The notes beneath the pieces were generated by a model that made no database searches, was not told the origin of the DNA, and saw only the letters and a list, made by a program, of their open reading frames with translations. DNA of 59,520 nt from Chara braunii. Lineage: Eukaryota; Plantae; Charophyceae. The first letter of the stretch is position 1. Every line of letters begins with the position of its first letter. Shown here one piece after another: positions 8,838 through 31,857 of this stretch. The stretch is from NCBI GenBank assembly GCA_003427395.1, contig BFEA01000023.1, forward strand, positions 765,618 through 825,137, written 5' to 3'. Both the position numbers and the translations under genes were made by a program.

Positions 8838-9275
8838 GTGCCATGGCTGTAGTGGTTAAGAAACTGGACTTTCAAATCCGTGCGTGCATAGAGGACGTCC
8901 GAGATTGATAACAGGTTGTACTATAGTCTATAGCACGGCAATCGGCCTGGAAATCAGACCAGGATGGTGGTGGCCCATGGGTAAAGCCCCATGGTTAAAA
9001 CCCCATTGGAAAAGCAGTCGTTGCTGGATGGGAGCAGAGTGAGCGAGAACTGCCTGTGTGGCAAATGGCTGAGTGTGGTGTTGACTGTGTGCCACTGTGA
9101 GTGTGAGGTTGGACACTACAGCCATGCAGGGATAGACTTAAAGTTCATTTGGTGAGTAGTGAGTCGCCATGGCCCTCCCTTTGTGAACAATGTGATGGCT
9201 GTACTAGTGGTTAAAACACTTGGCTCTTGAGGCTAAGGACCTAGTACGGTCGCTGAGTTCACATCTCGGCATGCA
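8838..9275 (+). repeat. Two related tRNA-like (SINE-head-like) units, 8838..8889 and ~9192..9275; paralogs 44446..44517 and ~44827..44910
   Basis: atggctgtagtggttaa (A-box-like). The copy at 44446 keeps the stem-loop tgggc-tcttgag-gctca and a perfect B box ggttcgaatcc. Confidence 0.55.
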
Positions 9276-9384
9276 TGGAGAGGGTCCAACGCCGATAAAA
9301 GAGCAGACTATCTTTCTGGTAGCTATCTTAGTATATCTTTCTTGCAGCCTCTCCCATGGACCCAGTCTATTGTGCATTTAACGA

Positions 9385-9665
9385 CCTTTGGATATCATGT
9401 TTGAGCTGACCAACCCACAGTAAATTCAGAGTTATCTTTCTAGTACCTATCTTCTTTCTTGTAGCCACTCCCACTCTACTCAGTCTATTCAATTGTGCAT
9501 TCGAGTTTTTTTTTTTGTGTTTTTGGTCAAGGGTGACGACCTTGGGATATCATTATTGAACTGACCAGCCTGCAGTAAATTCAGAGTTACTTTTCACTAT
9601 TTTCGATCTATCATGTTTGAAGTGACCAGCACACAGTAAATTCAGAGTTACTTTTCACTGTTTTC
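9385..9665. repeat. Three copies of an ~45-57 bp unit (paralog ~45010..45290)
   Basis: 'tatcatgtttga.ctgacca.c..acagtaaattcagagtta' occurs three times. Confidence 0.7.
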
Positions 9666-9686
9666 TGTCATCTCATCTGCCTCAAT

Positions 9687-9759
9687 TGGAATTCGAACTC
9701 AGGTCTGTGGTTCAACAATTCATGGTCACCGACTCACCGTGTGCCAACTGAGCTAGGCC
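9687..9759 (-). pseudogene. Degenerate tRNA-derived sequence (paralog ~45312..45370)
   Basis: Minus strand GGCCTAGCTCAGTTGG (A box) ... GAGTTCGAATTCCA (B box). Confidence 0.45.
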
Positions 9760-10103
9760 AGTTGGTTCTTAATTTTTTGTCACTTTTTTAGCTCAGCCTG
9801 TTTTTAGCAACGTACTAACATCACAGCAGACTTCTTCAAATTTGGACAATGACCCTCCCCTTCCCCGCTGATCCCCATGCTTTTTTGTCTTAATTTTTAT
9901 TATTATTATTTATTAAACTTTTGTTTGATTTTCATAATAACTGCGTTCACCATTGGACCATCCACGGGCAATGGATCAATACCCCCATTCGCCCGAATTT
10001 TCATATTCTGTACCCCCATGCTATATCCTGTACAGGCTGGACAGTGGACAGAGTAACGTTCCACTCCCTGTCTGGATTTGCCTTAGAGGCATACGCCTTC
10101 CTC

Positions 10104-10107
<4 letters not shown>

Positions 10108-10161
<54 letters not shown>

Positions 10162-10185
10162 TGCGTGTGTGTGTGTGTGTGTGTG
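10108..10185. repeat. (GT)n microsatellite
   Basis: Seen directly. Confidence 0.95.
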
Positions 10186-10499
10186 CACCAGATATCAGTT
10201 TGACTTCTCCAGAAGTCAGACGTTCTTTTTTTTTTGGGGGGGAAAGGGCGGGGGGGGAGTGGGGGAGGAGTTGGGAGAAGTCAAAGAGAGTTGAAATTAT
10301 ATCCAGATACGATTCCGAGAGAATATGGGGATCATGAAGAGTGGGCAAGTGGGGGAGGAGAGAAGAGGGAGGAGGGAGGAGGGAGGAGAGGAGAGGAGAG
10401 GAAAACCAGCTTTGTGACTGCGAGGGGGGAACATTTCCCTCGTGAGTCCTGACATGCAAAGGACTCTTAAGCACAAATAGTGAGTCAAAGAATGAACAG

Positions 10500-10767
10500 A
10501 TGCGAGCATATCTTTGGAGAACAGAGATGCTATACAAATATATAATCTTGAGGGATAACCACGTTGATTGGCCCTGGATCTGCCGGGCCGCCCGGGTCAC
10601 TTTATTTCCTCGGGGGGCCCGACCGTGCAAGGATCATGCGGGCATATCTTTGGAGAAGAGAGAGGCTATACAAATATATCATCTTGAGGGATAACCATGC
10701 TGATTAGCCCTGGATCTAGTCTACCCACCGGGCCGGCCAGGTCACCTTATTTCCTCGGTTGGCCCGG
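10500..10767. repeat. ~135 bp tandem duplication; the second unit is interrupted by the giant LTR element and resumes at 37746
   Basis: Unit 'tgcg.gcatatctttggagaa...cttgagggataacca...tatttcctcgg..ggcccg'. Unit 1 continues 'accgtgcaagga', which reappears right after 37745. Confidence 0.85.
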
Positions 10768-10999
10768 TGTCGCACTTTTTCCAGCCGGGCCACTTCGGGC
10801 GACCGGAAAGCCAACACGATTTTGTATGCTGATTGCAATAAATAAAACAAATTAAATAATGCAAGAAGCAAGACCGACTGACTCGAGCAAAGACAAGATC
10901 AAATGAATGAGGGAAGAATGAGAACTCGTAATAATCTCAAAAAGTACACATAAACAAGCATTGTCAACACCTCTTAAGAATCCTCACTCATCCCTCTAG

Positions 11000-11673
11000 T
11001 CAGTCTCTCTCAATCTCTCTTTTTACTGATCTTCTCTGGTGCCGTGACCCACGCCCACGTACAATCTGAGACTGAGGCTTCGCAACAAAATGCCACCTGA
11101 AGCCAACAAGCTCTGAGCATGACCATCCGAGGCACATGACACGGTAGTTAACCGTGGAGCAAAACTCCTCCCACAAAGTAGGCAGTCCATCCACTGAAAA
11201 AACTTCTCGTGTGAGGTTGGGATACTCGGTGGGCTCGGTCAGCGCCTCAACGTCGATCACTGCCAGAGAGATGTGCCTCTTTGCCAAACCAATCACATCC
11301 AGCCAACTCGTGCCATCTGTGAGGAGAGAAGGGACTGGAGGCCTAGGATAGTCAGTATAAAGCATTGACCCAAAACTGCGGATCAACGTAATGTCACTCT
11401 TTTCTAGCTCCCTCTCTCTTTGCTCAAGGTATTCGGTGGCTGAGATCAAGACAGTATCGAAAAGTTCATGAGTCTCCTTGCCCTTCTTCAGGTAAGGCCT
11501 CAGATCATGGATAGTGCCATCAGCAATACTGTCTGGACAACGAAGATTGACCGATCTCCCTGTCTGAAACCAATGACACTAACATACTGATAATGGAATG
11601 CCTCTTTGCATGAAATCCGGTTGAGGCTGGCCAGCACTGACTCACTGACCGGCGTAGGCTGAACTGTGCTCAT
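11000..11673 (-). pseudogene. LTR-borne accessory ORF A4 (family A, unknown function); one frameshift near 11520..11580
   Basis: Joined translation MSTVQP..VLASLNRISCKEAFHYQY..IHDLRPYLKK..PPVPSLLTDGTSWLDVI aligns by eye with leader ORF A1 (VLKELSKF..FPYRY..IYDIRPYVKE..PLVPDSYCDGTNWLPII). Confidence 0.7.
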
Positions 11674-11726
11674 GAGTACTCTTGCTAGTGCGAACCCACC
11701 AGATGGTCATGGAAAACTAGTTACCA

Positions 11727-11885
11727 AACTGATTGCTGAAAACTGATTGCTGAAAACTGATTGTTGATGATTGATTACTGAAAACTGATTGCTGATGATT
11801 GCTACTGAAAACTGATTGCTGATGATTGATTACTGAAAACTGTTTGCTGAAAATTGAATGCTGAAAATTAAATGCTGAAAACTGT
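11727..11885. repeat. Tandem 13-14 bp repeat (aactgattgctgaa) inside the LTR; longer array at 30721..30905
   Basis: Seen directly. Confidence 0.9.
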
Positions 11886-11974
11886 TGTTTTGAAGTCTAG
11901 CCCAGCTCTCTACAGTCTGCCTGCGCCAGACACACACTCATCTCTTTTATACTGAAATAGGTAATTTACTTGTC

Positions 11975-12229
11975 TCACTGAGAATCCCGGACAACCTTTA
12001 TTGCTTCCTCTACAGTGCCCACTGAGGAAATAAGAGCGCACAACTTACCGTTTTTGTCATGTAAATAATAAATATACTCAATTCGGGTGTGGTTCCTTAC
12101 CAGTGTCAAAGCATGCGCCATCATCATGATTGTCTGCTGATTGTATTTTTCCACTGCGCTCTTCCTCCAGTCCTCTGCCACGCCCTGACGCAGTGAACAT
12201 GCCACCCTTATAATGTCACTATCACCCAT
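11975..12229 (-). CDS. LTR-borne accessory ORF B3 (84 aa, family B, unknown function)
   Basis: ATG-started ORF, clearly paralogous to 12585..12836 (RV.C.L.Q...W...IMM..AL..V.N.T.IEY..Y.H...G.L...SSVG.VEEA...V). Confidence 0.7.
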   Translation of the reverse strand: MGDSDIIRVACSLRQGVAEDWRKSAVEKYNQQTIMMMAHALTLVRNHTRIEYIYYLHDKNGKLCALISSVGTVEEAIKVVRDSQ

Positions 12230-12584
12230 TTCTCCCCTGAGTTTTCGCTGTTTGGTTACCAGTTGACTGCTGCTGTTGAGATTGCCGCCCTGAAGTGCTG
12301 TTTCTAACTACTTAACTGGTTGTTGTTTACTGATTGCTGTTGAGAGGGCTGTAGCTGCTAGTTAGAGAGAAGGGATTGATTGCTGATTAGATAACAGACT
12401 GATGACTAAGTAGAAAACAGATCGACTGCTGCTCAAATGCCAATTAGCACAATGGTTGTTCGTGTTCCGTCGATATACTAGGTACTCCGTTGTGATCTGT
12501 TTACAGAAGCCTGCCTGTTCTCTCTAGTCTGAATCTGCCTGAGGTGAATTTGCCTCTCTCGGTGCTGTTGTCTAAACTCTTTTA

Positions 12585-12836
12585 CTAATTTTCAGTAACC
12601 TTTCTCCTCGCCTCTTCAACAGATCCTACCGACGAGAGGGTATTGTGTAATCTCCCGTCTGACCTATGAATGTAGAAGGTATACTCAATAAATGTCTGGT
12701 TCTTCACTCGCTCCAAAGCCTGTTCCATCATGATTCTTTTCTGATAACAAAGGCCATGTATAACTCTTTCCTCCCAACCTTCACTTCTGTCTTGATGCAG
12801 AGTACATGTCACCCTCAATATTCTTTCACCCTCCAT
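12585..12836 (-). CDS. LTR-borne accessory ORF B4 (83 aa from ATG, family B)
   Basis: MEGERILRVTCTLHQ...ALERVKNQTFIEYTFYIH...SSVGSVEEARRKV; intact in both LTRs; paralog of B3. Confidence 0.72.
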   Translation of the reverse strand: MEGERILRVTCTLHQDRSEGWEERVIHGLCYQKRIMMEQALERVKNQTFIEYTFYIHRSDGRLHNTLSSVGSVEEARRKVTEN

Positions 12837-15800
12837 CTCTCTGCAGAACACCTCTCCTTTCACCCCTGTGCATAGAAACCCTGATGTCCGCCAGAAGCTG
12901 TTTGTGAAATCCGGGTAACTAGACACAGATGGGACGGGTAACTGTACGTGCGTTATGTGTTCGTCTTGTAGGGTCTATGCAGAGTCTACAGAGTCCTCAC
13001 TGATTCAGCCGAGTCTGGGCTTATCTGCTGGTTAACGCCTGAGTTCGCCGAATCCATGCATAAATGAGTTGAGTCCGTACCGAGCCCTCTAATTCTGCAT
13101 TGGATTGCCTGGTCTTGCGTAGGATTACCTGAGCTTACGTTGGACGGCTTAAGTCTTTTTTTAGGTTTGCCCAACTCAGGTTTGTGTAGCCTGGATCTGG
13201 TTCGATTTGTTCATGTCTGATTCATGTTGTCAGAGTCCAGTTAAAATCGGGTAAAAATTATCAGAGCCAAATACAAATTGTCTGAGTCGAGTGAAAATTG
13301 TATGGGTCGAACAAAAGTTGTCTGAGTCGAATTAAAAGTTTGTTTAATAGCAGGTTGAACGCTGATCAAAAGTTGATCGCGTGTTGCTTGATCACTCATT
13401 AAATACTGGTTCGAGATTGACTGCATGGTGCCTGCTTACAGTCAATAACAACGAGTCCTTATCCGCTCGCCACCGTGCTGAGTACTGGCTGTGGCCAAAC
13501 TGCACTGAGCACTGCGTACTACTACACATGACCGACACCGTTTACTGTAAACAACGTTATGTGACTAAAGTCGTGGATCGCCTTTTAATTAATTTTTCAA
13601 GCAGAGTTCTCAAGGAGAGGCCTAAACACCTTGAAGCTTTCCTTAGACTCTAACCTGATCCTTTCCCAACAGCCTCATTGTACGAGTAAGTGCTGTGTAG
13701 TTTTCCGTCTGATCCATAGATGTAGAGGGGGTAGCCAATGAATCCCTGACAGGGGTTTTCAATTACCCTCCTCGAGCTCCCAGTAACCGTTTCCAGTTCG
13801 ACTTAGTTAACATCCTTATGAATTACCTGTCGGTTCACTGGATACAGATGGAGGTTCGCAAGAGCTCCATCTACTAACAGCCCCTTTGATTCAGTCCTGC
13901 AGTCCAGGGTTTGAGATCGGCTCAGACGATCCTACGAGGCTACGCCAACTCGCTAGCACCAGGCTTTCCCTCTCTAATGTGCCCTTGAGCAGGCCGTAAC
14001 TAAGGTCACACACCGAATGCTACTAACATGCTTCCTTTCTCCGTCCAAGATTGTTTGCATTATTCGCAGCGGATTCACTGCGGCTGGCCCGTTGGTAACG
14101 TGCCGCCAACGATTTAACATGGACTGTCGAGTTGGAAGAAGTAACATCACACAATTAAACAGAAAGGGGCTCATAAAACTGTTCGCTCCTGAAACAGACT
14201 ACTTCCCCTGCTAGAGTGCTCATCTTCAGATAGTACAGTTCAGGACATTTTTGGCGAGGGCCTGTTCCGTCCCCCACATATGACTGCACATGTAGGCTCC
14301 CTCACTTGGACGATGCACGAGGCAAGTTGACTCACGTTCAACACATGATCCGGTTTTAATTAGTGACAATTCTTGTACGATGGACTCAAACGACGCCATA
14401 CAGGCCATTACGCATAGGGCAAGAATGTAGATGCAATACCAGCGGAAGCCTCTTTCTCGCAAATAATGCAACGATGAATTTCCTTTCAGACCCTACTCAG
14501 CACTTTTGTCATTAATACGAGTGAGACCCAAGTCTGGGTTATCTGTAAACTTTGCCTAATGTCGAGCTAATCACAAGCCCATCCTCAATGACACGCCCAA
14601 AGGCTCCCAACCACAGACCTCGCTCAATTGTCCATTGAGTACCATTGCCCAGGAAAATACGACAATTTACATGGCTACTCGCCAGACTCATACTGCAGCT
14701 GCGAAACCTTCTGCTTTTACTTTTCTCCTAAAAGAAAAAAAGAAACAGCTATGACCCGGTTCTGTCCAATCATCACAACGCATCACAACCATTATGACTT
14801 TGTCCTGTTCATACTTATAATCTGAGGTCTGACCTACAGATGCACTTATGTCTAGGATCATTTATCCATAGTTCATTATGTACTAGAACCAGCCAAATTA
14901 GAGTGCAGACAGCTAATCCCCATCGAACAGGTATTTAGCCAGTAGGTAAGCTATCTTCCTCAATACTAGTTTTCTTTTGTTCATTAATCAGGGCTCAAAA
15001 CTAGGTCATTAGCAAATAAGGAAAAGTAACAGGGATGTCATGAGAAGTAGTTCAGAAGCCCCTTAGGTAGAGTCGAGACAAGGCAAATACCCGAGCCGTG
15101 TGTCTGACCAAGAAGGAAAACATTCTCGCCAAAAGAGAAAATTTGAAAAGATTCAAGATCGAAAATAATAAAAGAAAACCAGTCCCTTGCAAAACAGAAT
15201 TATTTAACTTTTCCAGAGCACTATCCGAAACCCTACTAACATCACTATCAAGATTAAACAGGAGAGCAACAAACCGATGTTTTATTAAGATTCTATCGGT
15301 CTTGGTAGTTAATTAATCATTCCCTTAAGTGGCGTGATCCTTCAACACCCAAGCATACTTAGCTGTCGCTCAGTTTAGTCCCTTTCAATCACATCGTCAT
15401 TACTCCCGTCAAAGGTGACTAACTCTTGCGTGCTAAGTTCAAGCTCGCGTCCTTTTGCCTATCGAAAGTCAAATCTCATCAGGCCAACACCGATCACTGA
15501 GCTCGCTAATCAACCGCCAATACTCATCACTTTTGTCCTTAAAAACAGAACTTAGTAGCCCACGATCCCTCGTAGCACGAACTCGGCTCACCTCCCCACT
15601 CCGCTTTGAAGAGGTAACAAGGGAGGAGACTCGGGTACGCCCCAGCACCCAAAAACATTTGACGTCAACAGGAAGGCTTGAACGACTGTCCGTTTTAAAA
15701 CCCCGACTCAGTCTCCCAGCACTCAGAATGTACCCATATTGGGTGGAGCTCACGAAAACTAGTTGCGTCGCTCACGCTGAATTGAGCCCATCCACACTCA

Positions 15801-16461
15801 CTTCTCTCAAATGCTTACACCGTAGTTGCCTGGCCCGCAAACAAGAAGCGCTTCCGAGACCAATCTTCTCAGGGGGTACGTATGAGATGATACGGGGCAG
15901 ATTATACTGGTAAGTACTCAAGAAGCCACGAAGATCGGTTATTCTGGCGAGTCACAGAAGCTAGCCGCGGCTTATCAATCCGGTAGTGTTTTGAGCAAGA
16001 GCTGACGTACGCAGTCCGAGCACCTCCCGCGCATTCATGCGCATCATTCGTCACGGTCACCTCTTCAACTCATCACTCGCAGCAATCCAATTGACATCAC
16101 CACCTCCCACCAGCTCACTCGTTCTGCTCTCTCCTCTTCTCCCTCCTTCTATGTTAATTGCCTTAGTACGCGTTAGCCTTCTGCTTCATGCCTAGCAGCT
16201 TCCATCCCAGAACGACCCTCGTTTGCAGAGTCTCTCAAGAAAACGATGCCTCTCACGATAACTAGACGAGTCACAGTGGCGCGATGGCGCTTGACGTCAA
16301 CAACATACTCTTAGGCTCGCGCATCCTTCCCTGCGTCTCACCAGCACACGTTGACCGCTCCCTCTCACAAGACACGACACCTGTCGAGCGTGAGCTCCTG
16401 CCACTCTCACTACTTGTCTCTCAGAATAGCACGTGTTGACCCTTTCCTGACGCTGCTCTCC

Positions 16462-16980
16462 TTACACGCGTCCTCTCCCCCTGTTTTTCTTCTCACCTGT
16501 CCCGCGGCCCCTCGGTGTCAGTTGTCGTGAGCTGGCCTCGGGTCCCTTTTCCACCGGCTTCGCGGCTCGGTGGTGCCTCTGGATCTCCCCTGGCCTGATC
16601 CAGGACCTGAGGTCCGTCTCCCGGTCTGCCTCACTCATTTCGCTTTCCCCACCCGAGTCTCTCTCGTTGTGCTGTTCCTCCCTTGTTTCGGTCCCAGTTG
16701 ATGACTCGGTCTCGTGATAGATGATCGACACCCTCAAGCCCACGGTCACCCCGTCTCGCCTGCACCTCCGCTCCGCCCTGTCACCAACTTCGGAAATGGC
16801 AGCCTGCAGCCTCTGGTCACCTCGCATCTCCTCTCTCCCCCCTTCTATGCAGATCTTTAGTCGGACTACCTCTCCCCCGTCATAATTCAGGACCGTAGTG
16901 ATCTGAGGACCTTCATCTGACATTGGAACCCAGCGCACAGTTTGCCGCCAACAGTCAGGCCTATATCCGTGTAGTGCCAT
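16462..16980 (-). CDS. LTR-borne ORF C (~172 aa, unknown function; acidic then basic C-terminus)
   Basis: Longest ORF in the LTR, first long ORF downstream of the putative TATA at 17163..17170. Its counterpart at 35512..~36032 is frameshifted. Confidence 0.45.
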   Translation of the reverse strand: MALHGYRPDCWRQTVRWVPMSDEGPQITTVLNYDGGEVVRLKICIEGGREEMRGDQRLQAAISEVGDRAERRCRRDGVTVGLRVSIIYHETESSTGTETREEQHNERDSGGESEMSEADRETDLRSWIRPGEIQRHHRAAKPVEKGPEASSRQLTPRGRGTGEKKNRGRGRV

Positions 16981-17162
16981 AGCCACTCTTTCTCAATGGT
17001 CAGCGCCAATGCTCAGTCCGCACTATCCCTGCTCGCAGCACCTAGCCAGGCTGAGTCCCGGGAGCCAGGAGTCAAGACTTCAGCGCGATGCCATTACTCA
17101 CACTCGAGGAGTGATAACGCTCCCCTCATGCACTTTTTGCTTCAAGACCCAGAGGCAACCTG

Positions 17163-17170
17163 TTTTATAG
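17163..17170 (-). promoter_or_regulatory. Putative LTR TATA box (CTATAAAA); counterpart ~36216..36223
   Basis: Motif conserved in both LTRs, ~1.2 kb from the start of the 3' LTR and upstream of ORF C. Confidence 0.45.
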
Positions 17171-17733
17171 AGCTCCGGGTGAGAGCGACCCCGGTGTACT
17201 AAAAGAGGGCTTTTCTGATAATGACTCGAATTTTAGGATTTAATAAAGTAACACAAAATTTAAATAAATCTTGAATAAGACCGGCGGGAAACTTCAACCG
17301 CCCGTGCACAGTCAAGGCACTCGAACCCCCGTCGTGCCGGTCCCTAGACTGTGCAACATGACCGAGGTCCGAAGAAAAGGAGGAAAAAAAAATAGAGATC
17401 CCATAATGGGATACCAACGACCGCAGTTTCCCTTTCAAAACTGACCTCCGGCCTGCCCCTATCGGGTGCCCGTATCCGATGGTAAGGAGTGGGCTTATGA
17501 CCCCATTCAGGGGTGATAAGCTTCCTACCAATGCGGCTGCGGGTCGCCCTCCACTTTTGAGGTTCTGCTGCACGGCGCTCTGTCGAGTGTGACAGCCGCG
17601 GAATAGTAGTGAAAAGTCGGCCCACCTAGACCACTAACTTAAACGGGTTCGAATTCGAACCGTTGGTGGGTCCTTCCCGCAACGCGACTAAGGCTCTACC
17701 ACGCTTAAGCAGACGGCAGAATAAAATTATGTA

Positions 17734-17782
<49 letters not shown>

Positions 17783-18354
17783 GTAATACATCAATCTGAA
17801 ACGACGCGATATAGTGATTGGGACCGACAAATTATTCCCTACTAAAGTACGTCAACCCAACTGCGGGCCAGACCTCTAGTCCCTTTTTCTTTTTACTTTC
17901 CTTTATTTTTCCTTTCTTCCCCCTTTCTGTTTTCTCTGCATAATCTTCTCACTCCCGACAACGACTGAATGTACCTGACCCATAACCTGTACAGGGGCAC
18001 TTGGCGCGCAGTTGAAAAGACTGAGTCAGTCTTCTCCTCCGTGTCCCAGGGCAGACCCGGCGACTACCACGGTTACCGGCCGGTTGTGCCCTGCTGTACA
18101 GTAGGGCGCCGAGCCTGCATGGACCAATGGAAGGTCCTGCTGGAAGGTCCCAGGGCAGACCCGGCGACCACCACGGTTCCCCCTTTTTGTCAAAGGCAAC
18201 GTCACAGGGACTGGTCCGCGCCGAGGCACAACCAGGATACCAGGAACAGCATGAGGTCCAGGACACGTCTATAGGCCGGAGCATCGGAGCGAGGACTGGT
18301 ACCAAGCAGGGACTTGGTACACAGAGGAGGGTCGGGATACCGCGCCATCCGACA

Positions 18355-18389
18355 TAATACCAAACCCCCACCCAGCGTCCCCGCTGGGT
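18355..18389 (-). other. Atypical polypurine-tract region with an adjacent 8 bp hairpin
   Basis: Minus strand reads GGGTGGGGGTTTGGTATTA just before the 3' LTR. Perfect stem acccagcg-tccc-cgctgggt at 18370..18389. Confidence 0.45.
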
Positions 18390-18410
18390 CAAAACGCACC
18401 GCACTTCTAG

Positions 18411-21333: not shown

Positions 21334-22725
21334 TTACTTAGGTGGTAGATTTCTCTTCCCTCTCTTTGGAGTCACTGTAGGGATCAAGTCAGGGTCTCTA
21401 AAGATGAACTTACAAAGTTTTGACCCTGATACCATGTCATGAACCCTGAATCCATCCATATCTGAAATCTCATAAACTTTGCCCTCTGCTTCCCCAGTGA
21501 TTCTATAGGGACCAAGCCATCTGGGCTCCAACCTCTTAGTCCATTGCGTCTCAAGGGAACTGTCAAACAAAAGGACAACATCTCCAATCTTCAATTTCTC
21601 TTTTCTTATATATCTTGTCTTGTTCCATCTTTCTTGATCCGATAGTCTGCTGGATGTCATTCTCTCTGTTGCATCCATCACTGTCTGATCTACTTCAGAT
21701 ATTTGCCTCATTCTGATCTGAAGGAGTTCTGAAATAGAATAATTTCTGTCTCTTTCTTGACTTGACCATGTCTTGACAATACTCTCAATAGGCAATGTAG
21801 CATATCGGTCGTACCACAGAGTAAAAGGTCCATAGCCAGTAGTCCTCTTGACTGTGATATTATCAACATATACAACAACTCTTAACACCTTTCGTCAGTT
21901 GCTGAGATTCCCTTCACACCACTTGGCGAATGAATCTTTCAGAGTTTTGTGACCTCTTTCAACAGGTGCATTCGCTTGAGGATGGTAAGTAGTCACATAC
22001 CGAATTCTGACACCTAATCTGAGTGTAGTTCTTCTGACAATTTCATTTCTGAACTCTGATCCTCTATCTGAGACAAATTCTCTGATAAAAGGATACCTGA
22101 GGTAGACTTCCTCTATCCAATCAGCCACTTGTTCGACTGTCTTTCTTTTCAAAGTTTTTGCCTCAACATATCCAGATAAATTATCTCTCATGTTTAATAT
22201 GTATCTCATCCCACCCTTGCCTGGAGGCATGGTGATGAGATCCAGATGAACTCTGCTACCTGACTCTACCAGGATTTTAGGGAATAGGGGTTCAATCATC
22301 CTTGTGGTAGACCTCTTTTGACATAAGACACATGATTTACAGTATTTAAAAATCATGTCTCTCATGCCAGGCCAAAAGTAGAGTTTGACAGTCTTGGAGT
22401 AGGTAGCCTCAGCAGCCCTGTGGCCACCGGCAACCCCCTCATGTAGAGCAGCGATAATCTCTAACTGCCACTCTTTACCACAAACCGCTCTTAGCGGAGG
22501 TAAACCTCCCTTACCATCCACAAAGAGATGTCCTCTCTTCAATCTGAATTTCTTCCTTGAATCCTTACAGTAATATTCTTTTAGCTGCTCCTTTTTCATC
22601 TTTCTGCCAATCTCTTGATAATTTTCATCATATTCTTTAAAGAAGAAAAATATATATTCTTCCTTCTTTTCACTTTCTTCTTGTTCCTTTGAACCTGAAC
22701 TTTCTCCAATCTCATGAGCAGCCAC
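21334..22725 (-). pseudogene. pol: Integrase domain of pol (HHCC zinc finger, DDE core, GPY/F motif); in-frame stop at 21895
   Basis: LHEGVAGGH...CKSCVLC; HLDL, VSDRGSEF, YHPQANAPVERGH; RWLGPYRI. No chromodomain follows. Confidence 0.92.
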
Positions 22726-22974
22726 TGCTGCAGCATTGAATTTAGCATACCAATCATTTGGTTCATCTTCCTCTTCTTTCCCAAGAACCGATTCGTAAAT
22801 GTACGCACTAGGGATCTATCCCCAGCTGTCCCTTTCTTCTGACCATGGATTTCACTTGTAGGAGCATGACACTTCATAGTCCTCATCATCTTTCTCATTA
22901 AGAAAATTATCAACATAGGAAGATTCTTCAATTGTCTCATTCACATCTTCTTCTTCTTCTTCTCGCCACTCAAT

Positions 22975-23400
22975 CCGGCTTAAGCCATCCGCCCTGTTCT
23001 TCTTAGTGGATATTTTTTCCAGCATAAAATCATATGTTCAGATGAAGACGATTCATCTGCTGACTGCTGGATCTAACTGCTGATGCTTTTTAATTGCACC
23101 AATCACAACAGATGCATCAGTCCTCATGATGAATCTCCTTCCTAAAACGTAGTGCCTGAAGCACCTGAGGCTATAGATGATTGACAGTAGTTTTTTCCTG
23201 AATTGGGTGTAGCTTCTTTCAGTAGAATTGAGGGTTCTGCTCTCAAATCTCAGAAGTCTTTCTCTCCCATTTTCATCTTTCTGAATAAGCACTCCACCGA
23301 GAGCAACTGGTCCTTCATCCGCCTCAATGATGAAAGGTCTTGTCTCCTAGTCATCATAATATGGTACTCCCGGCACTACACCACCATCTCTTAGTTTTTC
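22975..23400 (-). pseudogene. pol: RNase H domain of pol
   Basis: FIIEAD.GPVALGGVLIQ...FESRTLNSTERSY...FRHYVLGRRFIMRTD...NRADGLSR; contains stops. Confidence 0.9.
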
Positions 23401-24500
23401 TTGCAATGTTTCTGTTGCAGCCTGTCTTTTATCATTCCATGCTAAGTTAGCCCCTTGTCTTACCATTTCCCTCAGGGGCTCTGCAAGGGCAAGAAAATGA
23501 GGAATGAAAATCCTTCAAAATTCACAGACTCCCAAGAAGCTCCTGACGGCTGTCACTCTTTTGAGAGGCAGAGACCAGTTCAAGATCTTGTCTATCTTCT
23601 TGGGGTTTGGGCTCCTACCCTTGGAGAAACATCTGAAGCCCAAGGTTATCACTTGTGGTTGGAAGAGAAGGGACTTTGGTCCACTAGCCGTCAGATTGTA
23701 CTTCTGAAGTCTCTCTAGGACCATCTTTACTCCTTCAGCATGTTCCCAGACAAACTTCCCGACTCCCCTTGCGACCAAAGTCTCATCTTTTACCGAGGGC
23801 CCTTTTACAAGATTATCATCAATGTAGGGACTGGTTATTTCAGGAGAAATATCCTGCATGACTTTGATTATATCCCTTTGAACCACTGTCACTCCGTTAG
23901 TCCAGCCCTGAGGTACCACACACATCTGAACAAACCCCCTTGGCGTGTGCATGACAGTCATTGGCCGGCTAGTGGGGTCAATAGGGAACTAATCATCGCC
24001 AGAATACAGGTCAACTAGAGAATAAATACATCGATCAGCAAAGGATTCAACGAGTAGATCAGCATTAGGAAGACTATTGGAATCACGTACCGTCATTGAA
24101 TTGAGCTTCTGAAAATTCTGTATCCATCTTAGTCCGCCCCCTGGTTTCCAGAAACAAAACCAGTTGTTAGTATACGGTCCATCAGCAGGTTCAACAACAT
24201 TATATGCAATCTTCTTGTGAAGGTACTTTACTACTTCCGCTTCTTCCTTTAGGGCATACTTGGTTGGTCTATCATTCCATGGAACATGATCAACCGTCTA
24301 GATTTTGACCATCTTGATCATGTCCACGTCCAACCGCCCTCTCTCTTCATCATTAAAGGAGAAAACGCCAAAAAAATTCTGACACATCTTAAAGATATAT
24401 TATTTCTCTTTAGGCATGATAAATTGATCCGAGTCTATCTTCATTATGTCGAATCTCTCTTTGGTGACTCTATTTTCCAATTTTGTTGATTCTCTCAATG
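23400..24500 (-). pseudogene. pol: Reverse transcriptase domain of pol
   Basis: VVPQGWTNGV...SPYIDD...LGF...VRSFLG; interrupted by stops. Confidence 0.92.
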
Positions 24501-24614
24501 CTCTTATAATTTTCCTCTCTTTTTCCAAGGCTTCATCATAATCTTTTTCTATTAGGACTGCCACTGGGTTTTTCTTCACCTCCTTGGGCTTATATTTTCT
24601 TTTTGACCCAGTGA

Positions 24615-25376
24615 CTATTTTCCTAAAAAAGGGTGAGTCGATGCAAATCTCAATTGCATCTTTCCTCCCTTAGCAGTCTCTACAGCCTTTTTGAAGGCTT
24701 CAATTTGCCCGTCCTCATCCTCGAGCTTACCAAGGGCTTTTATCATTTTCGAAACCTGATTGATTCCCACCGAAATCTCTTCTTTTGCTTCTCGTTTTCC
24801 TTCCTTCTTTAGTCTCCTAACCCTTTCATCAGATTCTTCCCTCCTGATCGAATTAGCAGATAGTTGATGTTTGAAGTTATTTTTCGTACTGACTATAAAG
24901 GTCTGCTCTTGAGCAGTCTCGGGATCCTGTAGACTGATCCAAGATGACCCCTCATGACTGAAAAATTGGACTGCCTCCATCCTATGCAAGAATGGAGTTC
25001 CCAAGATACAGTCATGATCCAGATCCGGCACTACAAAACCCAGTAACTCCACAGTCATTGTCCCAACCCTGATAGGCAAATTATCAATAAATTCAGCCAC
25101 GAACAACTCTCCTGCAATATTACTCAGTACATTTTGTGTAGGTCTATCAATAGATAAATTACATGCTTCCATCGTTCTTCGTGAAAAAAGTATCATTTCT
25201 GCCCCAGAATCCACCAGGGCTAGAATCTTCACTTGATTAATGCGAATTGTAAGGTGCCCACAACCCATGGTTGCAAATCTCATTTTGCAATCTGGCAGTG
25301 ATCTATTCACTTGGTTGGGAAAGACTGACCCCAAATAATTAACTTCCAATTTCTTCTTCTCAATTAACCTCTTCAA
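24615..25376 (-). pseudogene. pol: Retropepsin aspartic protease domain of pol
   Basis: ALVDSGAE catalytic motif and DCILGTPFL. Confidence 0.9.
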
Positions 25377-25533
25377 CTCCTCTCAGTTTGGGCGCTAACG
25401 TCATTGCTTCCTTGAAAGACAGTGTCACTTCCGTTTCTTCCAGCATTTCAGCAATTACATCCGAAATCACAGTCTCGTCATCCTAATCACTCTTGAGAAT
25501 AAATTTTCTCTTTCTCCCCTGTTTATTCTTTTT

Positions 25534-27084
25534 CTATGAACGTTCCGGTTCAGAGTCATCAAGGATGTTAGTAAGTGATTCCTCAGCCTTCTTTCTTTTC
25601 TTTTCTTCTATCATTTGAGGTGTCATACGCGTTTGGTGGTTCCTTACTTCGCAAACCCTGACACTGGGTTTCATGATAAGTTCTGGGGGTAGATCACCAT
25701 GGAATGACATCATGTTAGCCAGAAGATGAACCATTTCATTGGAAGAGGACTCTACTAATCTAAAAGGATTCTGAAAAGTAGGGTTTCCTCCCAATAGAGA
25801 CTCACTTGTTGATGCCTCGCTAGGCTCACACTCTGTCAATGTTAAGGACTGCAGAGGCAACTCAATCGTAGTATAAGGGTCACTTGCTCTTTGTACTAGC
25901 TCATTAGGCAAGTCTCCAATGAGGAAATGAACATTCACATTGACCTTTCTCTTTTTCTTAATCTTCATCTTTTCATCATGTTTAAGAGAAAGAAGCCTCA
26001 TACCTCCTGGATGTCTGGGGTCCAACTTATTCCATGAACTATTACAGACATGGCTTATTGCATCTTTCTTTGTCACCCCACTCCTTACATCCTCCTCAAG
26101 AGACTTGCAATAATTGGTAGTATGTCCTCCTTCGCCACAATAGTAGCAAGTAAAACTCCTCTTAGGACGCGCATCATATTTTCTTCTCTCTCTGTTTCCT
26201 CCATCACCATTCTTCTCATTCCTTTTTGTTATGGACGAATCCCCCTTCTTATCATGATTTTCGTTGTCATCGTTATCATCGTCATCTTCCTCACTTTCAA
26301 CTTTTTTCTTTCCCCTGTCATCCAGAACAAGCGTTGCAGGCCTTGCAACCATAAAGTTAGCCATCACTTTTTGAAGAATATTCTCAGTGGTCAGATTGCT
26401 CCCTCTATTCATTCCATTCTCAGTTTCCCAGTCCTTGGCCAAAGTGTTGATCTGATCCAGTGACCATTTCTTATGGGACACAGTAGGTAGAGTTCTTATA
26501 ATTGCAACAATTTTTTCTCACCTGAGAGGATAATGCTGAGCTTGATTAAAAACTGTTTGCTTTTCAGTGTCAGTAAAATTTCTCAAAAATATATGGCATC
26601 TCTGAGCTTCATCCAAATATGGAATTTTTCTTGCTGTTCGGATGAAGGTCTGAAGAAATACATTGAAAGTGTCATATTTAGCTCTTCTGATGTTAAGTAA
26701 ATCCTTAGTTGTTGTTGGAACTGAATCTTTCTCAAATTCTTTTTTCAGTCTCTCCTTAACCTCTTCCCAGGTAGTCACCCCTTCCATCAATTCCTGAACT
26801 GCCAGTCTTAAGTCAGTATCACAATAAGATAGAAGGTGCTTAAGCCGTTGCTTGTCTGTCCAGCCATAACTGAGTCCAAATAATTCATACTCGTCCAAGA
26901 AATCATTAACCTGAGGTCCTCTGAAACAGGGAATTCTTTCATCTGACCTCTTTGCTCTTGCAATATCTGATCCTCCTTTTATAGTATCAACTCTCTCAAC
27001 CAACTCTCGTATAACTCCAACCAAGGCATCTTCATTGGTCCCTGCTGATGTACTCGGCCTTCCTCGTCCCGCCATCTTGACCAT
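25534..27084 (-). pseudogene. gag: Gag (capsid-like region plus CCHC zinc knuckle); in-frame stop at 26518
   Basis: IPCFRGPQVNDFLDEYE...WEEVKERLKKEF; zinc knuckle CYYCGEGGHTTNYC; lies directly upstream of the protease. Confidence 0.88.
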
Positions 27085-27144: not shown

Positions 27145-27411
27145 TCAATCTCTCACTCTTCTCGCAAGAGATACAGGTCCGTTTCTCTCTTCTCTTGTCT
27201 GCTCTACCCTCTGACAATTATGTACGTATAGGGTATAAGCAATAATAGATTGAGTAGTGATCAAGGGCAGTGCAATCCTTCTCAGCCTTCCAATATAATC
27301 TTCAATCAACTCTCTCTCATCATCCCTACTTAGTCTTCTGTCATACCCCTTTACTGTATCCCGAATCATGAAATATCGAGTCAGGTCCATAATCTCATAA
27401 TGAAATTGCAT
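27145..27411 (-). CDS. Leader accessory ORF B2 (88 aa, family B), in frame with gag
   Basis: ALPLITTQSIIAYTLYVH motif shared with B1/B3/B4. One TGA and 20 open codons separate it from the gag ATG. Confidence 0.7.
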   Translation of the reverse strand: MQFHYEIMDLTRYFMIRDTVKGYDRRLSRDDERELIEDYIGRLRRIALPLITTQSIIAYTLYVHNCQRVEQTREERNGPVSLARRVRD

Positions 27412-27414: not shown

Positions 27415-27705
27415 TTACAACCCACTGTTGATCCTTCTTGAAAGAGAAACTCGTTCCCGAGAAGTGTAATATGATACTCTCTCAGTAGTTCCCACTTTCA
27501 CCACCTTTAACAAATAGCTTATCTCAGTCTGGTCAGTAACATTTCTCAAGGCAGAATCTCTCATGCGATCAATGAAAGGCTGCAAAAACTCAAGTTCATC
27601 TAGGGTAGAAAGATTTATGTCAGAGATCCGAAGAGTCTCATCTACCTTGACTATTCTACCTTCCAACACAACTCCCAGCGTCAGCTGTTCAATCAAGCTG
27701 GACAT
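27415..27705 (-). CDS. Leader accessory ORF B1 (96 aa, family B)
   Basis: LS..DE.E....I.R.R..AL...T.Q..I.Y.L.V...VSL.RR shared with B2; its TAA lies 3 nt before the B2 ATG. Confidence 0.7.
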   Translation of the reverse strand: MSSLIEQLTLGVVLEGRIVKVDETLRISDINLSTLDELEFLQPFIDRMRDSALRNVTDQTEISYLLKVVKVGTTERVSYYTSRERVSLSRRINSGL

Positions 27706-27803: not shown

Positions 27804-28298
27804 CTACTGAGAGCATTCTTCTTGGACTCTCTTCACTTTCCATGCAAACTTTATCATGGCATACCAATTGTATCTTGGGAATGTGAGTCCCTCAACAAGT
27901 GGAGATGGTATCCCAACAAAAAGTCTGACATAGGTACTAAGGGAGAAATTTCTTCCCTCGCGCTTTAATCTTATCTTCTCATCATGCACTAGATTCGACG
28001 CTCGTTGCCAACACGCACCTTTTTGGTTTTCATCAAATCTCTGCTTTGGCACATAAATTCCAATATCATATTCATGAAGATCAATAAAATAGCATGTAAG
28101 AACATACGGACTGTCCTGTTCTTGTCCTGATCTCTTTATGGCTTCATACCTCACGATTTCATAAGGAATTACAACCCTACCCGCTATAGAATTAAGAGAA
28201 TTCAACAACTTGTCTGATTCAGCCTTACTCAGCCCTTCATGGTCTCTTATCAGTTTAAGCTTAGATTTCTCTCTCAAGGGTATATAGCGTCGACTCAT
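27804..28298 (-). CDS. Leader accessory ORF A3 (164 aa, family A; frame stays open past the TAG to 27708)
   Basis: LLNSLN...YEIVRYE...SGQEQ..YVLT.YF..L..YD..IYVPK.R...CW; paralog of A2. Its ATG overlaps the A2 stop (ATGA). Confidence 0.75.
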   Translation of the reverse strand: MSRRYIPLREKSKLKLIRDHEGLSKAESDKLLNSLNSIAGRVVIPYEIVRYEAIKRSGQEQDSPYVLTCYFIDLHEYDIGIYVPKQRFDENQKGACWQRASNLVHDEKIRLKREGRNFSLSTYVRLFVGIPSPLVEGLTFPRYNWYAMIKFAWKVKRVQEECSQ

Positions 28299-28789
28299 CT
28301 GACTCTTTGGCCTCTCCTCACTTTCTGGGCAAACTCAATCACCGCAAACCAATCATCTTTTGATAAATTTAAATTAGGCAAGGGAGGGGCTGAAAATCCC
28401 TCAAAGATAGTAAATCGAGTTGATCCAATGAAGTTCTTATTTTCCCTCTCAAATTTATCTTTCTATTTCAGTACCACTTCCTCATCAAATCTCCAGCATC
28501 TCTCATATACTGCATCAGCACTTCTTTCTTTTGGGACATAAATTCTTACGTCGTACACATCCAGGTATGTGAAATAGAATGTCAGTACATATAATCGTTC
28601 CTGCTCCCATCCGCTCTCGACCATCTCATACCTGACAACTTCATATGAAAATGTCTCTCTCTTGCTTAGAGTATTCAACGACCTTAGGAGACATTCAACC
28701 TTCTCTTGACGTGGACCTGAACCTCTGCTAAAATTCGACCTTCTTTGTCTAATTACTTCTGCTGAAATCTCTTCAGCTCTCATGACCAT
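28295..28789 (-). pseudogene. Leader accessory ORF A2 (~164 codons, family A) with an internal TAG at 28463
   Basis: Reading through the TAG gives ..KDKFERENKNFIGSTRFTIFEGFSAPPLPNLNLSKDDWFAVIEFAQKVRR, colinear with the A3 C-terminus. Confidence 0.75.
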
Positions 28790-29252
28790 CGTTCCTTTTC
28801 TCCCTTGTCAATACCATGTTGATTATTGGCAGCCAGTTAGTCCCATCACAATAGCTGTCAGGTACAAGAGGAATTAGAAGAGTCTTGTAAGTTACTGGCA
28901 TTATACCCCATTCCACTTTCCTCTTTTGCTTGATCAGATCTGTCTTTTCATCATAAATAAACTGGATCACGATCTCCCATAACCTGTTAAAATTCTCACC
29001 ATCATTGCTGCCTCCTTCCTTGACATATGGGCGGATATCATAGATATCTCACTCAAAGAAGTGAGTCATCACTACACAGATGGTTGAGCCACGAGAGTGA
29101 TAGCCCCAACAAGCCTCATATCTGTAAGGAAATATTCCTCTTGTAGTAAATTTAGACAATTCTTTCAGAACACCGTCGACCAGCATTTGTCTCGATCCGT
29201 CTCACCCTCTTCCTTTCAATTCCTTTCAGCGTGTTGGGCGATAATTGGGCAT
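28773..29252 (-). pseudogene. Leader accessory ORF A1 (160 codons, family A) with three in-frame TGA
   Basis: MPNYRPTR*KELKGRG*DGSRQMLVDGVLKELSKFTTRGIFPYRYE...FFE*DIYDIRPYVKE...DGTNWLPII; same length and motifs as A2/A3. Confidence 0.65.
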
Positions 29253-29501: not shown

Positions 29502-29519
29502 TCCCCGACAACGGCGCCA
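29502..29519 (-). promoter_or_regulatory. Primer-binding site complementary to the 3' end of tRNA-Asp
   Basis: Minus strand TGGCGCCGTTGTCGGGGA, 4 nt downstream of the LTR end; 17/18 match to the plant tRNA-Asp(GTC) PBS TGGCGCCGTTGCCGGGGA used by Athila elements. Confidence 0.9.
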
Positions 29520-29993
29520 TTTTTGTCGGACTTTTTCCAACTAGGCTACTTCGGGCGACCGAAAAGCCAACAGGCTTTCACGCAGGATTTTCTATGCTGA
29601 TTGCAATAAATAAAACAAATTAAATAATGCAAATCCCTTCCTGTTGTGTGCGTCCGACTTCGAGCGAGACCCTTCAATTGTAGTCTTCGCCGGTCCCCGG
29701 TCTTAGGAATCTTTTATTTTGATTCGGAACAACTAGAATTATGCAAATAATAACCATAAAATTATGGGGTGCTATGCATGCATCAATTATGTCAATTTGA
29801 TTTTGAGAACTGTGACAGAATCATCCACGATAGCAATCATCAGACAAGAACAATGCAAGAAGCAAGACCTACTGACTCGAGCAAAGGCAAGATCAAATGA
29901 ATGAGGGAAGAATGAGAACTCATAATAATCTCAAAAAGTACACATAAACAAGCATGGTCAACACCTCTCAAGAGTCCTCACTCATCCCTCTAG

Positions 29994-30667
29994 TCAGTCC
30001 CTCTCAATCTCTCTTTTCACTGATCTTCTCTGGTGCCGTGACCCACGCCCACGTACAATCTGAGACTGACGCTTCGCAACAAAATGCAACCAGAAGCCAG
30101 CAAACTCTGAGCATGACCATCCGAGGCACATGACACGGTAGTTAACCATGGAGCAAAACTCCTCCCACAAAGTAGGCAGTCCATCCACTGAAAAGACTCC
30201 TCGTCAGAGGTAGGGATACTCGGTGGGCTCGGTCAGCGCCTCAACGTCGATCACTGCCAGAGAGATGTACCTCTTTGCCAAACCAATCACATCCAGCCAA
30301 CTCGTGCCATCTGTGAGGAGAGAAGGGACTGCAGGCCTAGGATAGTCAGTATAAAACATCGGCCAAAAACTGCGGATCAACGTAATGCCACTCTTTTCTA
30401 GCTCCCTCTCTCTCTGCTCAAGGTATTCGGTGGCTGAGATCCAGACAGGATCGAAAAGCTCATGAGCCTCCTTGCCCTTCTTCAGGTAAGGCCTCAGATC
30501 GTGGATAGTGCCATCAACAAAACTGACTGGACAACGAAGATTGACCGATCTCCCTGTCTGAAACCAATGACACTAACATACTGATAATGGAATGCCGCTT
30601 TGCATGAAATCCGGTTGAGGCTGGCCAGCACTGACTCACTGACCGGCGTAGGCTGAACTGTGCTCAT
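29994..30667 (-). pseudogene. ORF A4 copy in the 5' LTR (same frameshift as the 3' LTR copy)
   Basis: Colinear with 11000..11673. Confidence 0.65.
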
Positions 30668-30995
30668 GAGTACTCTTGCTAGTGCGAACCCACCAGATGG
30701 TCATGAAAAACTAGTTACCAAACTGATTGCTGAAAACTGATTGCTGAAAACTGATTGCTGAAAACTGATTGTTGATGATTGATTACTGAAAACTGATTGC
30801 TAATGATTGCTACTGAAAACTGATTGCTGATGATTGCTACTGAAAACTGATTGCTGATGATTGATTACTGAAAACTGTTTGCTGAAAATTGAATGCTGAA
30901 AACTGTTGTTTTGAAGTCTAGCCCAGCTCTCTACAGTCTGCCTGCGCCAGACGCACACTCATCTTTTTTATCCTGAAGTAGGTAATTAACTTGTC

Positions 30996-31250
30996 TCACT
31001 GAGAATCCCGGACAACCTTTCTTGCTTCCTCTACAGTGCCCACTGAGAAAATAGTAGCGCACAACTTACCGTTTTTGTCATATAAATAATAAATATACTC
31101 AATCTGGGTGTGGTCCCTTACCAGCGTCAAAGCATGCTCGATCATCATGATTGTCTGCTAATTGTATTCTTTTACTGCGCTCTCCCTCCAGTCCTTTGCC
31201 ACGCCCTGACGCAGTGAACATGCCACCCTTATAATGTCACTATCACTCAT
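30996..31250 (-). pseudogene. ORF B3 copy in the 5' LTR with a premature TAG
   Basis: Colinear with 11975..12229; CAG>TAG after ...KEYN. Confidence 0.65.
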
Positions 31251-31605
31251 TTATCCCCTGAGTTTTCGCTGTTTGGTTACCAGTTGACTGCTGCTGCTGA
31301 GATTGCCGCCCTGAAGTGCTGTTTCTAACTACTTAACTGGTTGTTGTTTACTGATTGCTGTTGAGAGGGCTGTAGCTGCTAGTTAGAGAGAAGGGATTGA
31401 TTGCTGATTAGATAACTGACTGATGACTAAGTAGAAAACAGATCGACTGCTGCTCAAATGCCAATTAGCACAATGGTTGTTCATGTTCCGTCAATATACT
31501 AGGTACTCCGTTGTGATCTGTTTACAGAAGTCTGCCTGTTCTCTCTAGTCTGAATCTGCCTGAGGTGAATTTGCCTCTCTCGGTGCTGATGTCTAAGCTC
31601 TCTTA

Positions 31606-31857
31606 CTAGTTTTCAGTAACCTTTCTCCTCGCCTCCTCAACAGATCCTACCGACGAGAGGGTACTGTGTAATCTCCCGTCTGACCTATGAATGTAGAAGG
31701 TATACTCAATAAATGTCTGGTTCTTCACTCGCTCCAAAGCCTGTTCCATCATGATTCTTTTCTGATAACAAAGGCCATGTATAACTCTTTCCTCCCAACC
31801 TTCACTTCTGTCTTGATGCAGAGTACATGTCACCCTCAATATTCTTTCACCCTCCAT
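31606..31857 (-). CDS. ORF B4 copy in the 5' LTR
   Basis: One amino acid different from 12585..12836. Confidence 0.7.
   Translation of the reverse strand: MEGERILRVTCTLHQDRSEGWEERVIHGLCYQKRIMMEQALERVKNQTFIEYTFYIHRSDGRLHSTLSSVGSVEEARRKVTEN

Follow-up and report, generated by a model that had tools for sequence, protein, structure and literature searches.

What does the long terminal repeat (LTR) of a plant-lineage retrotransposon contain, and can it hold protein genes of its own? The question is raised by a 59,520-nucleotide stretch of the Chara braunii contig BFEA01000023.1 (positions 765,618 to 825,137 of the forward strand; hereafter the window), in which a Ty3/gypsy element of 26,978 bp is coded on the minus strand. 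An earlier reading of the letters alone, here called the original prediction, had placed three genes (A4, B3 and B4) in each LTR and taken them for relatives of genes in the leader before gag. Each LTR comprises four small protein genes (U, B3, B4 and A4) and one gene remnant (B5), so that this giant algal gypsy element has a real, selected, multi-gene coding LTR, mirrored by a paralogous array in its leader. The limits of the repeat are set by the following features.

10764..10767, plus strand: left target-site duplication, CCGG
10768..18354, minus strand: 3' LTR, 7,587 bp, repeat of 29524-37745, with sense termini TGTCGGA...TGCGACA
29502..29519, minus strand: primer-binding site (PBS) of 18 nt, separated from the 5' LTR by four A's
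29524..37745, minus strand: 5' LTR, 8,222 bp, repeat of 10768-18354
37746..37749, plus strand: right target-site duplication, CCGC, with three of four bases matching and of the NCGN type

Self-comparison of the window gives a 6,861-bp repeat of 95.2% identity (10855-17652 versus 29849-36705), flanked by two smaller matching blocks; when the ends are read directly, these blocks and the large repeat make up a single LTR repeat broken by indels, which at 7.6 and 8.2 kb exceeds the best BLAST block of 6.86 kb. Both LTRs, read on the minus strand, start with TGTCGGA and end with GACA, and their boundaries are fixed by the 4-bp duplication (one mismatch) together with the two flanks of the element, which together restore a single unit of the adjacent tandem repeat. 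The 5' LTR holds extra pieces of ~220 bp (29633-29853) and ~440 bp (36705-37146), both missing from the 3' LTR; loose ends at 10864 indicate that the ~220-bp piece is present in other copies. A block of 1,332 bp (12644-13975), which covers most of B3 and leaves B4 and A4 outside, is identical between the LTRs and may reflect recent gene conversion or a collapsed assembly; outside it, the LTRs diverge by 4.8% (Kimura two-parameter, 5,533 sites). Within these limits lie the following genes.

11000..11673, minus strand: A4, family-A LTR gene of ~224 codons (674 nt), with a frameshift near 11530
11975..12229, minus strand: B4, family-B LTR gene of 84 aa, intact in the 3' LTR
12585..12836, minus strand: B3, family-B LTR gene of 83 aa, intact; the word TGCAG ends 5 nt before its ATG
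13620..13802, minus strand: B5, decayed third B paralog (E 8.5e-4)
16462..16980, minus strand: U, open reading frame (ORF) of 172 aa in the 5' part of the LTR, with no family assigned
30204..30667, minus strand: A4 copy of the 5' LTR, with the same frameshift and also an early end at 30207
30996..31250, minus strand: B4 copy of the 5' LTR, with an internal stop
31606..31857, minus strand: B3 copy of the 5' LTR, intact and 99% identical
35512..36033, minus strand: U copy of the 5' LTR, with one internal stop

The coordinates of B3, B4 and A4 agree with the LTR ends, and the three genes thus stand where the original prediction had put them, on the sense (minus) strand inside a genuine LTR. It had also described B3 and B4 as open in each LTR, which holds for both genes in the 3' LTR and for B3 in the 5' LTR, but not for the 5' copy of B4; and A4, although correctly located, is not the open frame of ~225 codons that had been described, as its frame, from the ATG at 11673 to the stop at 11000, changes in both LTRs and is cut short in the 5' copy. 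At the place of the frameshift an extra base is carried by 12 of 17 reads in run X6, by 19 contigs of X1 (807 of 4072 summed depth) and by 20 contigs of X3 (924 of 4607). The frame is continuous across the site in a related contig, L001 (86% identical in DNA, with its B gene likewise followed by A), and in two Chara gene models; the frameshift belongs to the lineage of this copy.

Three additions extend the earlier list of features: U, B5, and the assignment of leader genes A2 and A3 to family A. Over 174 aa, U is 67% identical to the N-terminal part of CBR_g30998, a Chara gene model in which U and A4 are fused; at U, depth peaks, and other copies have an indel of 3 nt. The DNA of B5 is identical to the B3 region at 97 of 141 positions (score 81, against a maximum of 56 in 300 shuffles); a sixth B-like stretch at 14200-14500 scored no better than shuffles and was rejected.

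On the other side of the PBS, the leader carries five genes in the order A1, A2, A3, B1, B2, followed by gag.

28773..29186, minus strand: A1, family A, with one in-frame stop
28295..28789, minus strand: A2, family A, with one in-frame stop; it starts inside the end of A1
27804..28298, minus strand: A3, family A, intact; its ATG overlaps the A2 stop (ATGA)
27415..27705, minus strand: B1, family B, intact
27145..27411, minus strand: B2, family B, intact; its ATG lies 3 nt past the B1 stop

The motifs that had been quoted in support of a link between LTR and leader genes (AL-x2-[VI]-x2-[QH]-[TS]-x-I-x-Y, HDLRPYL/YDIRPYV and P.VP....DGT.WL..I) are present. In family A, none of 2000 shuffles reaches the score of the pairs A1-A4, A1-A2, A1-A3, A2-A3 or A2-A4, where the pairwise figures for A4 concern its C-terminal piece only; the predicted kinship of A4 with A1 is upheld by a Gumbel P of 1e-7 in the C-terminal frame, and a profile built from A1-A3 recovers both parts of A4 in both LTRs at E 1e-11 to 8e-3 among 1535 six-frame peptides of the window. 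The similarity of A3 and A4 taken as a pair alone is not significant in the shuffle test. These scores argue that A4 forms one family with the leader genes A1-A3.

Within each place the B pairs are strong (B3-B4, P 1e-16; B1-B2, P 2.5e-7), whereas between leader and LTR they are weak (B2-B3, P 8e-4; B2-B4, 0.016; B1-B3, 0.024). Compared profile to profile, leader B and LTR B give E 5e-4 with a probability of 31%, and with a B1/B2 profile the B3/B4 peptides rank first among the non-self peptides of the window (E 0.014-0.69). The kinship claimed for these genes holds, though weakly, and homology of B3/B4 with B1/B2 is likely rather than certain. Profile comparisons of A, B and U with one another gave nothing significant (U with the B profile, E 0.43), and for this reason a single superfamily is not claimed.

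As had been noted, the similarity lies in protein and not in DNA: blastn aligns no LTR gene with the leader at better than E 0.66. Because of this, and because identity at third codon positions is 0.35-0.38 in the five paralog pairs examined, the duplications are taken to be old. The tree of family A has separate groups for A4, A1, A2/A3 and P0063-like proteins, joins A4 and A1 only at 83/88, and leaves the family unrooted; a search of the LTR for a relic PBS or LTR end found none that is clear, the one candidate being an 11-mer with two mismatches at 14398. With the paralog pairs synonymously saturated, the tree unrooted and no clear relic, the proposed growth of the LTR by uptake of leader genes finds no support here. 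Copying from LTR to leader would be at least as simple as the reverse, because a local duplication from the 5' LTR into the stretch right behind the PBS would be inherited directly.

Selection was assessed against L001. The ratio of nonsynonymous to synonymous substitution rates (dN/dS) of A4 is 0.28 for the 3' LTR and 0.37 for the 5' LTR; the shifted-frame controls give 0.83 and 0.74, and the two LTRs compared with each other 0.87. Counted codon by codon, A4 differs from L001 at 8 of 129 second positions and 24 of 129 third positions (P 0.004), B4 at 14 of 74 and 44 of 74 (P 7e-7), and B3 at 24 of 75 and 49 of 75; B4 retains 46 of 74 residues (62% protein identity) with third positions near saturation. 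Among family-wide reads (38 coding rows among 40 of 97 listed variable sites), 12 of the 16 A4 sites with a share below 0.9 are synonymous, against 5.2 expected (P 5e-4), and 5 of the 22 near-fixed differences, against 6.4; the latter stay near expectation because this copy decays on its own. The A4 ratios and the B4 counts bear out the past selection on the proteins that had been proposed, and the dN/dS near 1 that had been named as speaking against it was not found. It can be held with high confidence that the genes lie inside a true LTR, that family A spans LTR and leader, and that A4 and B4 evolved under purifying selection there.

How widely the genes occur in the family is indicated by summed DNA contig depth, which is not copy number: 7,600-16,300 for A4, about 4,000-16,000 for the internal region, 3,777 for U, 280-350 for B3/B4 and 80-150 for the LTR middle. 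In run X6, the 3' bin of A4 has a depth of 23.9, and 17 internal bins have a mean of 12.7. These values suggest that A4 is common family-wide, that U occurs fairly widely and that this version of B3/B4 belongs to a small subfamily. In L001 the B gene is 41% identical to B4 at third positions and the adjacent A4 81% identical; with B near saturation beside so close an A4, the B alleles appear either to have been swapped or to be much older. At positions 420-1151 (plus strand) of L001, 1.5 kb upstream of its B gene, stands a Ulp1/C48 SUMO-protease ORF (E 9e-25), which probably belongs to a neighbouring transposon and has no match in the window.

A search of 1.84 billion representatives with the A profile returned 11 matches. 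Seven lie below E 1e-10, namely three Chara gene models and four intact proteins of 121-161 aa that stand alone on short ENA contigs; two further matches are distant Chara proteins, and P0066 and P0069, being unrelated repeat proteins, were excluded from alignment and tree. The Chara gene models P0067 and P0068 hold a distant family-A domain, and one of the two weakly matches a Mutator transposase (E 0.0016, under the cut-off); possible explanations are that DNA transposons have this domain too or that the models are chimeras.

Sequence searches of Pfam, PHROGs and PDB yielded no family for A or B, and no similarity of either to known silencing suppressors. Two matches that involve a single member each were not accepted, XisI (E 0.03, for A) and phrog_8786 (E 0.0027, one of 10 members); word-seeded protein searches gave relatives in 0 of 22 candidates for A3 and 0 of 66 for the B alignment, and the Atlas gave no usable match for B4 and a lead of 0.75 for P0063 only.

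The predicted model of B4 (predicted local distance difference test, pLDDT, 81) has the order strand-helix-strand-strand-helix, and three libraries each rank PD-(D/E)XK-type nucleases first, with matches that cover only part of the core. Rai1 is the best (Z 6.7, root-mean-square deviation 2.5, 65 residues aligned, Rai1 227-296); Foldseek returns Rai1/DXO and lambda exonuclease (best E 0.01), and 15 of the 50 rows obtained against viral structures are named as PD-(D/E)XK, Cas4, UL24, RecB, YqaJ or exonuclease. The predicted beta-alpha-beta-beta-alpha unit superposes on part of Rai1/DXO, lambda exonuclease, Cas4 and UL24; unlike these, B has only 84 aa, covers one part, and scores below the level of kinship. 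The strands and the helix bearing the other catalytic acids of the PD-(D/E)XK fold are those absent from B, and the catalytic acids and lysine of that fold are not conserved among its sequences, whose invariant columns are A40, L41, I50, Y52 and V73. The fold scores of the B4 model may reflect only a common arrangement.

For family A, comparison with EEP nucleases gives template-modelling (TM) scores of 0.52-0.59 between low-confidence models, under the bar of the tool, with TDP2 on top at E 0.027 and no Pfam EEP match. A PC4/Sub1-like identity (PF02229) is improbable, even though the A motif V-x-V-x-x-F-x6-D-[IVL]-R-x-Y falls in register with the PC4 strands and an hhalign comparison of A with 77 PC4 proteins scores 18.6 (E 0.007), above all 150 column shuffles (maximum 18.1). 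The probability of that alignment is only 5.5% and single-sequence scores are at most 3.9 bits; the first PC4 block is reached by 53 of 3000 shuffles, while for the second motif (P-T-K-K-G-I-x-L) and the terminal helix, which find no support in A, 1051 of 3000 shuffles reach the score. Moreover, this reading was chosen by eye and is uncorrected for looking elsewhere, neither Pfam PC4 nor PDB gives a match for A, and the predicted topology of A (three strands and a long helix) is unlike the four-strand-plus-helix unit of PC4 given in the consulted part of PMC7549692. Features of PC4, whose units pair into a homodimer that binds ssDNA, were taken from parts of PMC7549692 and PMC8545432. With its first block weak and its second unsupported, filing A as PC4 was rejected; on the predicted model, which is poor, the PC4, EEP and gelsolin folds are not supported for A.

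Where the LTR genes stand relative to transcription is suggested by two features.

29713..29718, minus strand: AATAAA, putative poly(A) signal, 190 nt before the LTR end and within the ~220-bp piece
11736..11881, minus strand: tandem repeats with eight TTTTCAG words just upstream of A4, possibly splice-acceptor-like

A short U5 is suggested because AATAAA stands so close to the LTR end. Placement of the genes in U3/R, with spliced or internal transcripts, is inferred from this signal, from the TTTTCAG repeats before A4 and from the TGCAG before B3; eight of the nine TTTTCAG words of the LTR sit in those repeats, and L001 retains a similar spacer. On balance, the signals in the sequence favour LTR genes that lie in U3/R and are inherited via the 3' LTR. 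The 3' LTR would then be the inherited template and the 5' copy need not be transcribed, so that the doubling of dosage that had been proposed does not follow. In the leader (window 27084-29186), stops and starts overlap or are nearly adjacent, an arrangement that resembles translational coupling; with 64 ATGs in the 2.4-kb leader, plain scanning through its array is unlikely.

Three poly(A) RNA runs (X5, X6 and X7), labelled as the same species, served as the expression check that had been suggested. On the whole element, X5 has 25 of 8.9 million reads and X7 has 40 of 16.2 million; the 2,121 reads of X6 come from both strands and track DNA depth (r 0.95), a pattern that carried-over DNA would produce. 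The element family looks silent in these samples.

The explanation that we prefer runs as follows. The LTRs of this Chara-type Ty3/gypsy element carry the selected genes A4, B3, B4 and likely U, which would be ancient paralogs or companions of the five-gene array before gag; lying in U3/R, they would rely on transcripts that are spliced or internal to the LTR and not on simple doubling, and their products, predicted to be small non-enzymatic nucleic-acid-binding helpers, would target the RNA, cDNA or chromatin of the element itself. Duplication, decay and replacement would change the B slot from one subfamily to the next, with A4 kept family-wide. As a whole, this chain stands slightly better than even. 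Its functional part, a nucleic-acid-directed accessory role in which A would be a small alpha/beta domain with a conserved F-x6-D-[VIL]-R-x-Y strand and B the C-terminal half, without a complete catalytic site, of a PD-(D/E)XK-like fold, is a tentative reading of the predicted models, somewhat less probable than its opposite.

Several observations weigh against this explanation. The fourth leader-LTR pair, B1-B4, is not significant (P 0.094). In A4, 6 of 45 fourfold sites differ from L001 against 8 of 129 second positions, a moderate signal, and among the sites present in both LTRs 11 of 21 are synonymous (P only 0.049). The depth of B3/B4 is ~30-50x below that of A4 at 88% identity, which leaves one related contig, L001, to indicate how far they occur in the family; it is short, and its LTR ends are not visible. 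Runs X5, X6 and X7 contain no real expression of the element. The fold check that had been proposed gave no match for A or B at E 0.001 or Z 8, the structure of A3 is predicted poorly (pLDDT 55, three strands and then a long helix), and the leads for A disagree (EEP nucleases, gelsolin, XisI at E 0.03, a PC4 motif).

A rival model, in line with the original prediction, places the genes in a very long R/U5 instead, read as one run B3-B4-A4-PBS-A1-A2-A3-B1-B2-gag on genomic RNA after the LTR end and PBS had moved downstream, with 3' and solo LTRs also read and dosage raised. The genes do lie on one strand and directly adjoin across the PBS, A4 has its best window match in its neighbour A1, the stop-start spacing of the leader is tight, and a TATAAAA precedes all LTR genes at 17169 and another precedes A4 at 11951 (3' LTR). 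Such an arrangement would, however, demand several kb of strong-stop DNA, and the LTR shows no clear relic PBS or att site; the AATAAA near the LTR end, the unstarred grouping of A4 with A1 (83/88) and the many ATGs of the leader, through which an array would hardly be scanned, likewise speak against it, and we consider it unlikely. No more probable is an arms race in which the products counter the host or its silencing by acting via host proteins, with solo LTRs supplying them in trans, a situation for which VANC of VANDAL elements offers a comparison. Rapid turnover of paralogs, the mosaic of a distant B beside a close A4 in L001, a B relic beside two live copies and the distant A domain in a Chara model with the weak Mutator-transposase match fit such a race, but the selection observed is purifying, the Chara models are probably chimeric, and neither family resembles known silencing suppressors.

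It is very improbable that the ORFs of the LTR are an assembly artefact or decayed duplicates free of selection. A4 is broken in both LTRs of this copy, no expression was seen, and the identical block amid 4.8% divergence may itself be gene conversion or collapse; yet the selection tests on A4 and B4 already largely refute this reading, other copies keep an intact frame, the LTR ends, PBS and target duplication are exact, and B4 and A4 fall outside the identical block. The preferred explanation of selected LTR genes in U3/R could be extended to regard the giant gypsy LTR of Charales as a mobile multi-gene cassette, whose swappable accessory genes, derived from broken-down nuclease-fold modules and paralogous to a translationally coupled leader array, would be supplied in trans by every 3' or solo LTR and steer how a family of hundreds to thousands of copies replicates or is silenced; this extension is speculative and has a low probability.

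In its main features, the element is a Ty3/gypsy retrotransposon. TG...CA direct LTRs, a PBS after the 5' LTR, which we take to be of the tRNA-Asp type, and a target-site duplication are all present, and a Pfam search of the internal region finds the gypsy order gag-protease-reverse transcriptase (RT)-RNase H-integrase.

18355..18377, minus strand: G-rich tract, a candidate polypurine tract, imperfect and interrupted, that abuts the 3' LTR
21334..27084, minus strand: gag, protease, RT, RNase H and integrase (Pfam), split over several frames

No chromodomain family, by which a chromovirus would be recognised, is found at E 0.1 at the integrase C-terminus (21337-21894). Among the integrase relatives listed, 54 of 55 are named Chara braunii proteins, the best being 64-68% identical. 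The 3-kb stretch between integrase and 3' LTR (18355-21333) contains short direct repeats at 19567-19745 and repeated purine-tract-plus-TTTGGTAT words that resemble the word at the LTR edge; its ORFs of 156 aa (minus strand) and 175 codons (plus strand) match neither A nor B. Around the element, 3173-10484 and 39267-46134, as well as 1-297 and 38906-39202, are ~90% identical copies of a 7-kb region with internal repeats. An uninterrupted ORF of 1,437 aa at 48716-53029 (minus strand), with EML/WD40 beta-propellers and a coiled coil, is probably a host gene; just downstream of it, at 47475-48268, are dispersed 65-nt repeats and an 82-nt inverted pair.

LTR genes are known from animal retroviruses: sag of mouse mammary tumour virus (MMTV), nef of the human and simian immunodeficiency viruses (HIV/SIV) and bel of foamy viruses are accessory genes in or overlapping U3 and are duplicated with the LTR. 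Unlike the Chara element, each of these has a single LTR gene and no paralogous leader array, and no sequence relation was found between sag, nef or bel and the LTR genes described here.

Comparison with plant and animal retrotransposons draws on parts of the cited sources. Among giant plant Ty3/gypsy elements outside the chromoviruses, those of the Ogre type, with LTRs of 1.9-6.5 kb and one or two extra internal ORFs (PMC6431247, PMC6317226), resemble this element in their ~25 kb size, very long LTRs, extra ORFs of unknown function, non-coding tandem repeats and non-Met tRNA primer; their LTRs are treated there as non-coding, whereas here LTRs of 7.6-8.2 kb hold four genes and a relic. The plant survey PMC6317226 counted extra ORFs of at least 250 codons, a cut-off below which all five small leader ORFs fall, and reports LTRs up to ~5 kb; for the OTA superclade (Ogre/Tat/Athila) and Phygy it gives target-site duplications of mostly 5 bp, with a preference for NCGN in Phygy. 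Phygy of Physcomitrella is, like this element, a non-chromovirus gypsy, and its NCGN target site recalls the 4-bp NCGN-type duplication seen in this one copy; Phygy elements are short, with a polyprotein filling their internal part (PMC6317226). Retrosat2, RIRE3 and RIRE8 of grasses likewise have long LTRs and a fast-evolving yet selected extra ORF before gag-pol, of unassigned function, but this is one ORF0 before ORF1, and the consulted part of the source mentions neither a paralog array nor an LTR copy (PMC3485330). Burro/GYPSM1 of planarians are also giant gypsy elements with accessory ORFs and thousands of copies; theirs are internal and have recognisable domains, whereas here small orphan proteins lie partly in the LTR (PMC6431247). 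A review of additional ORFs, in the part consulted, places them in the internal region (PMC7264820). The literature search, with most subscription papers outside its scope, found no paper on protein genes in plant or algal LTRs or on the structure of Chara gypsy elements, and no multi-gene LTR that mirrors a leader array.

In the parts of PMC6317226 and PMC7264820 consulted, plant and algal LTRs count as non-coding, and extra ORFs are surveyed in the internal region. With several selected genes in the LTR, solo LTRs could be gene-carrying units, and the length of an LTR can be driven by its gene content. Some Chara gene models labelled 'hypothetical' are probably chimeras made up of LTR genes. 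The element provides two small and tractable orphan families, of 84 aa and of ~130-220 aa, for the question of what the extra ORFs of retrotransposons do, and does so in the algal sister group of land plants.

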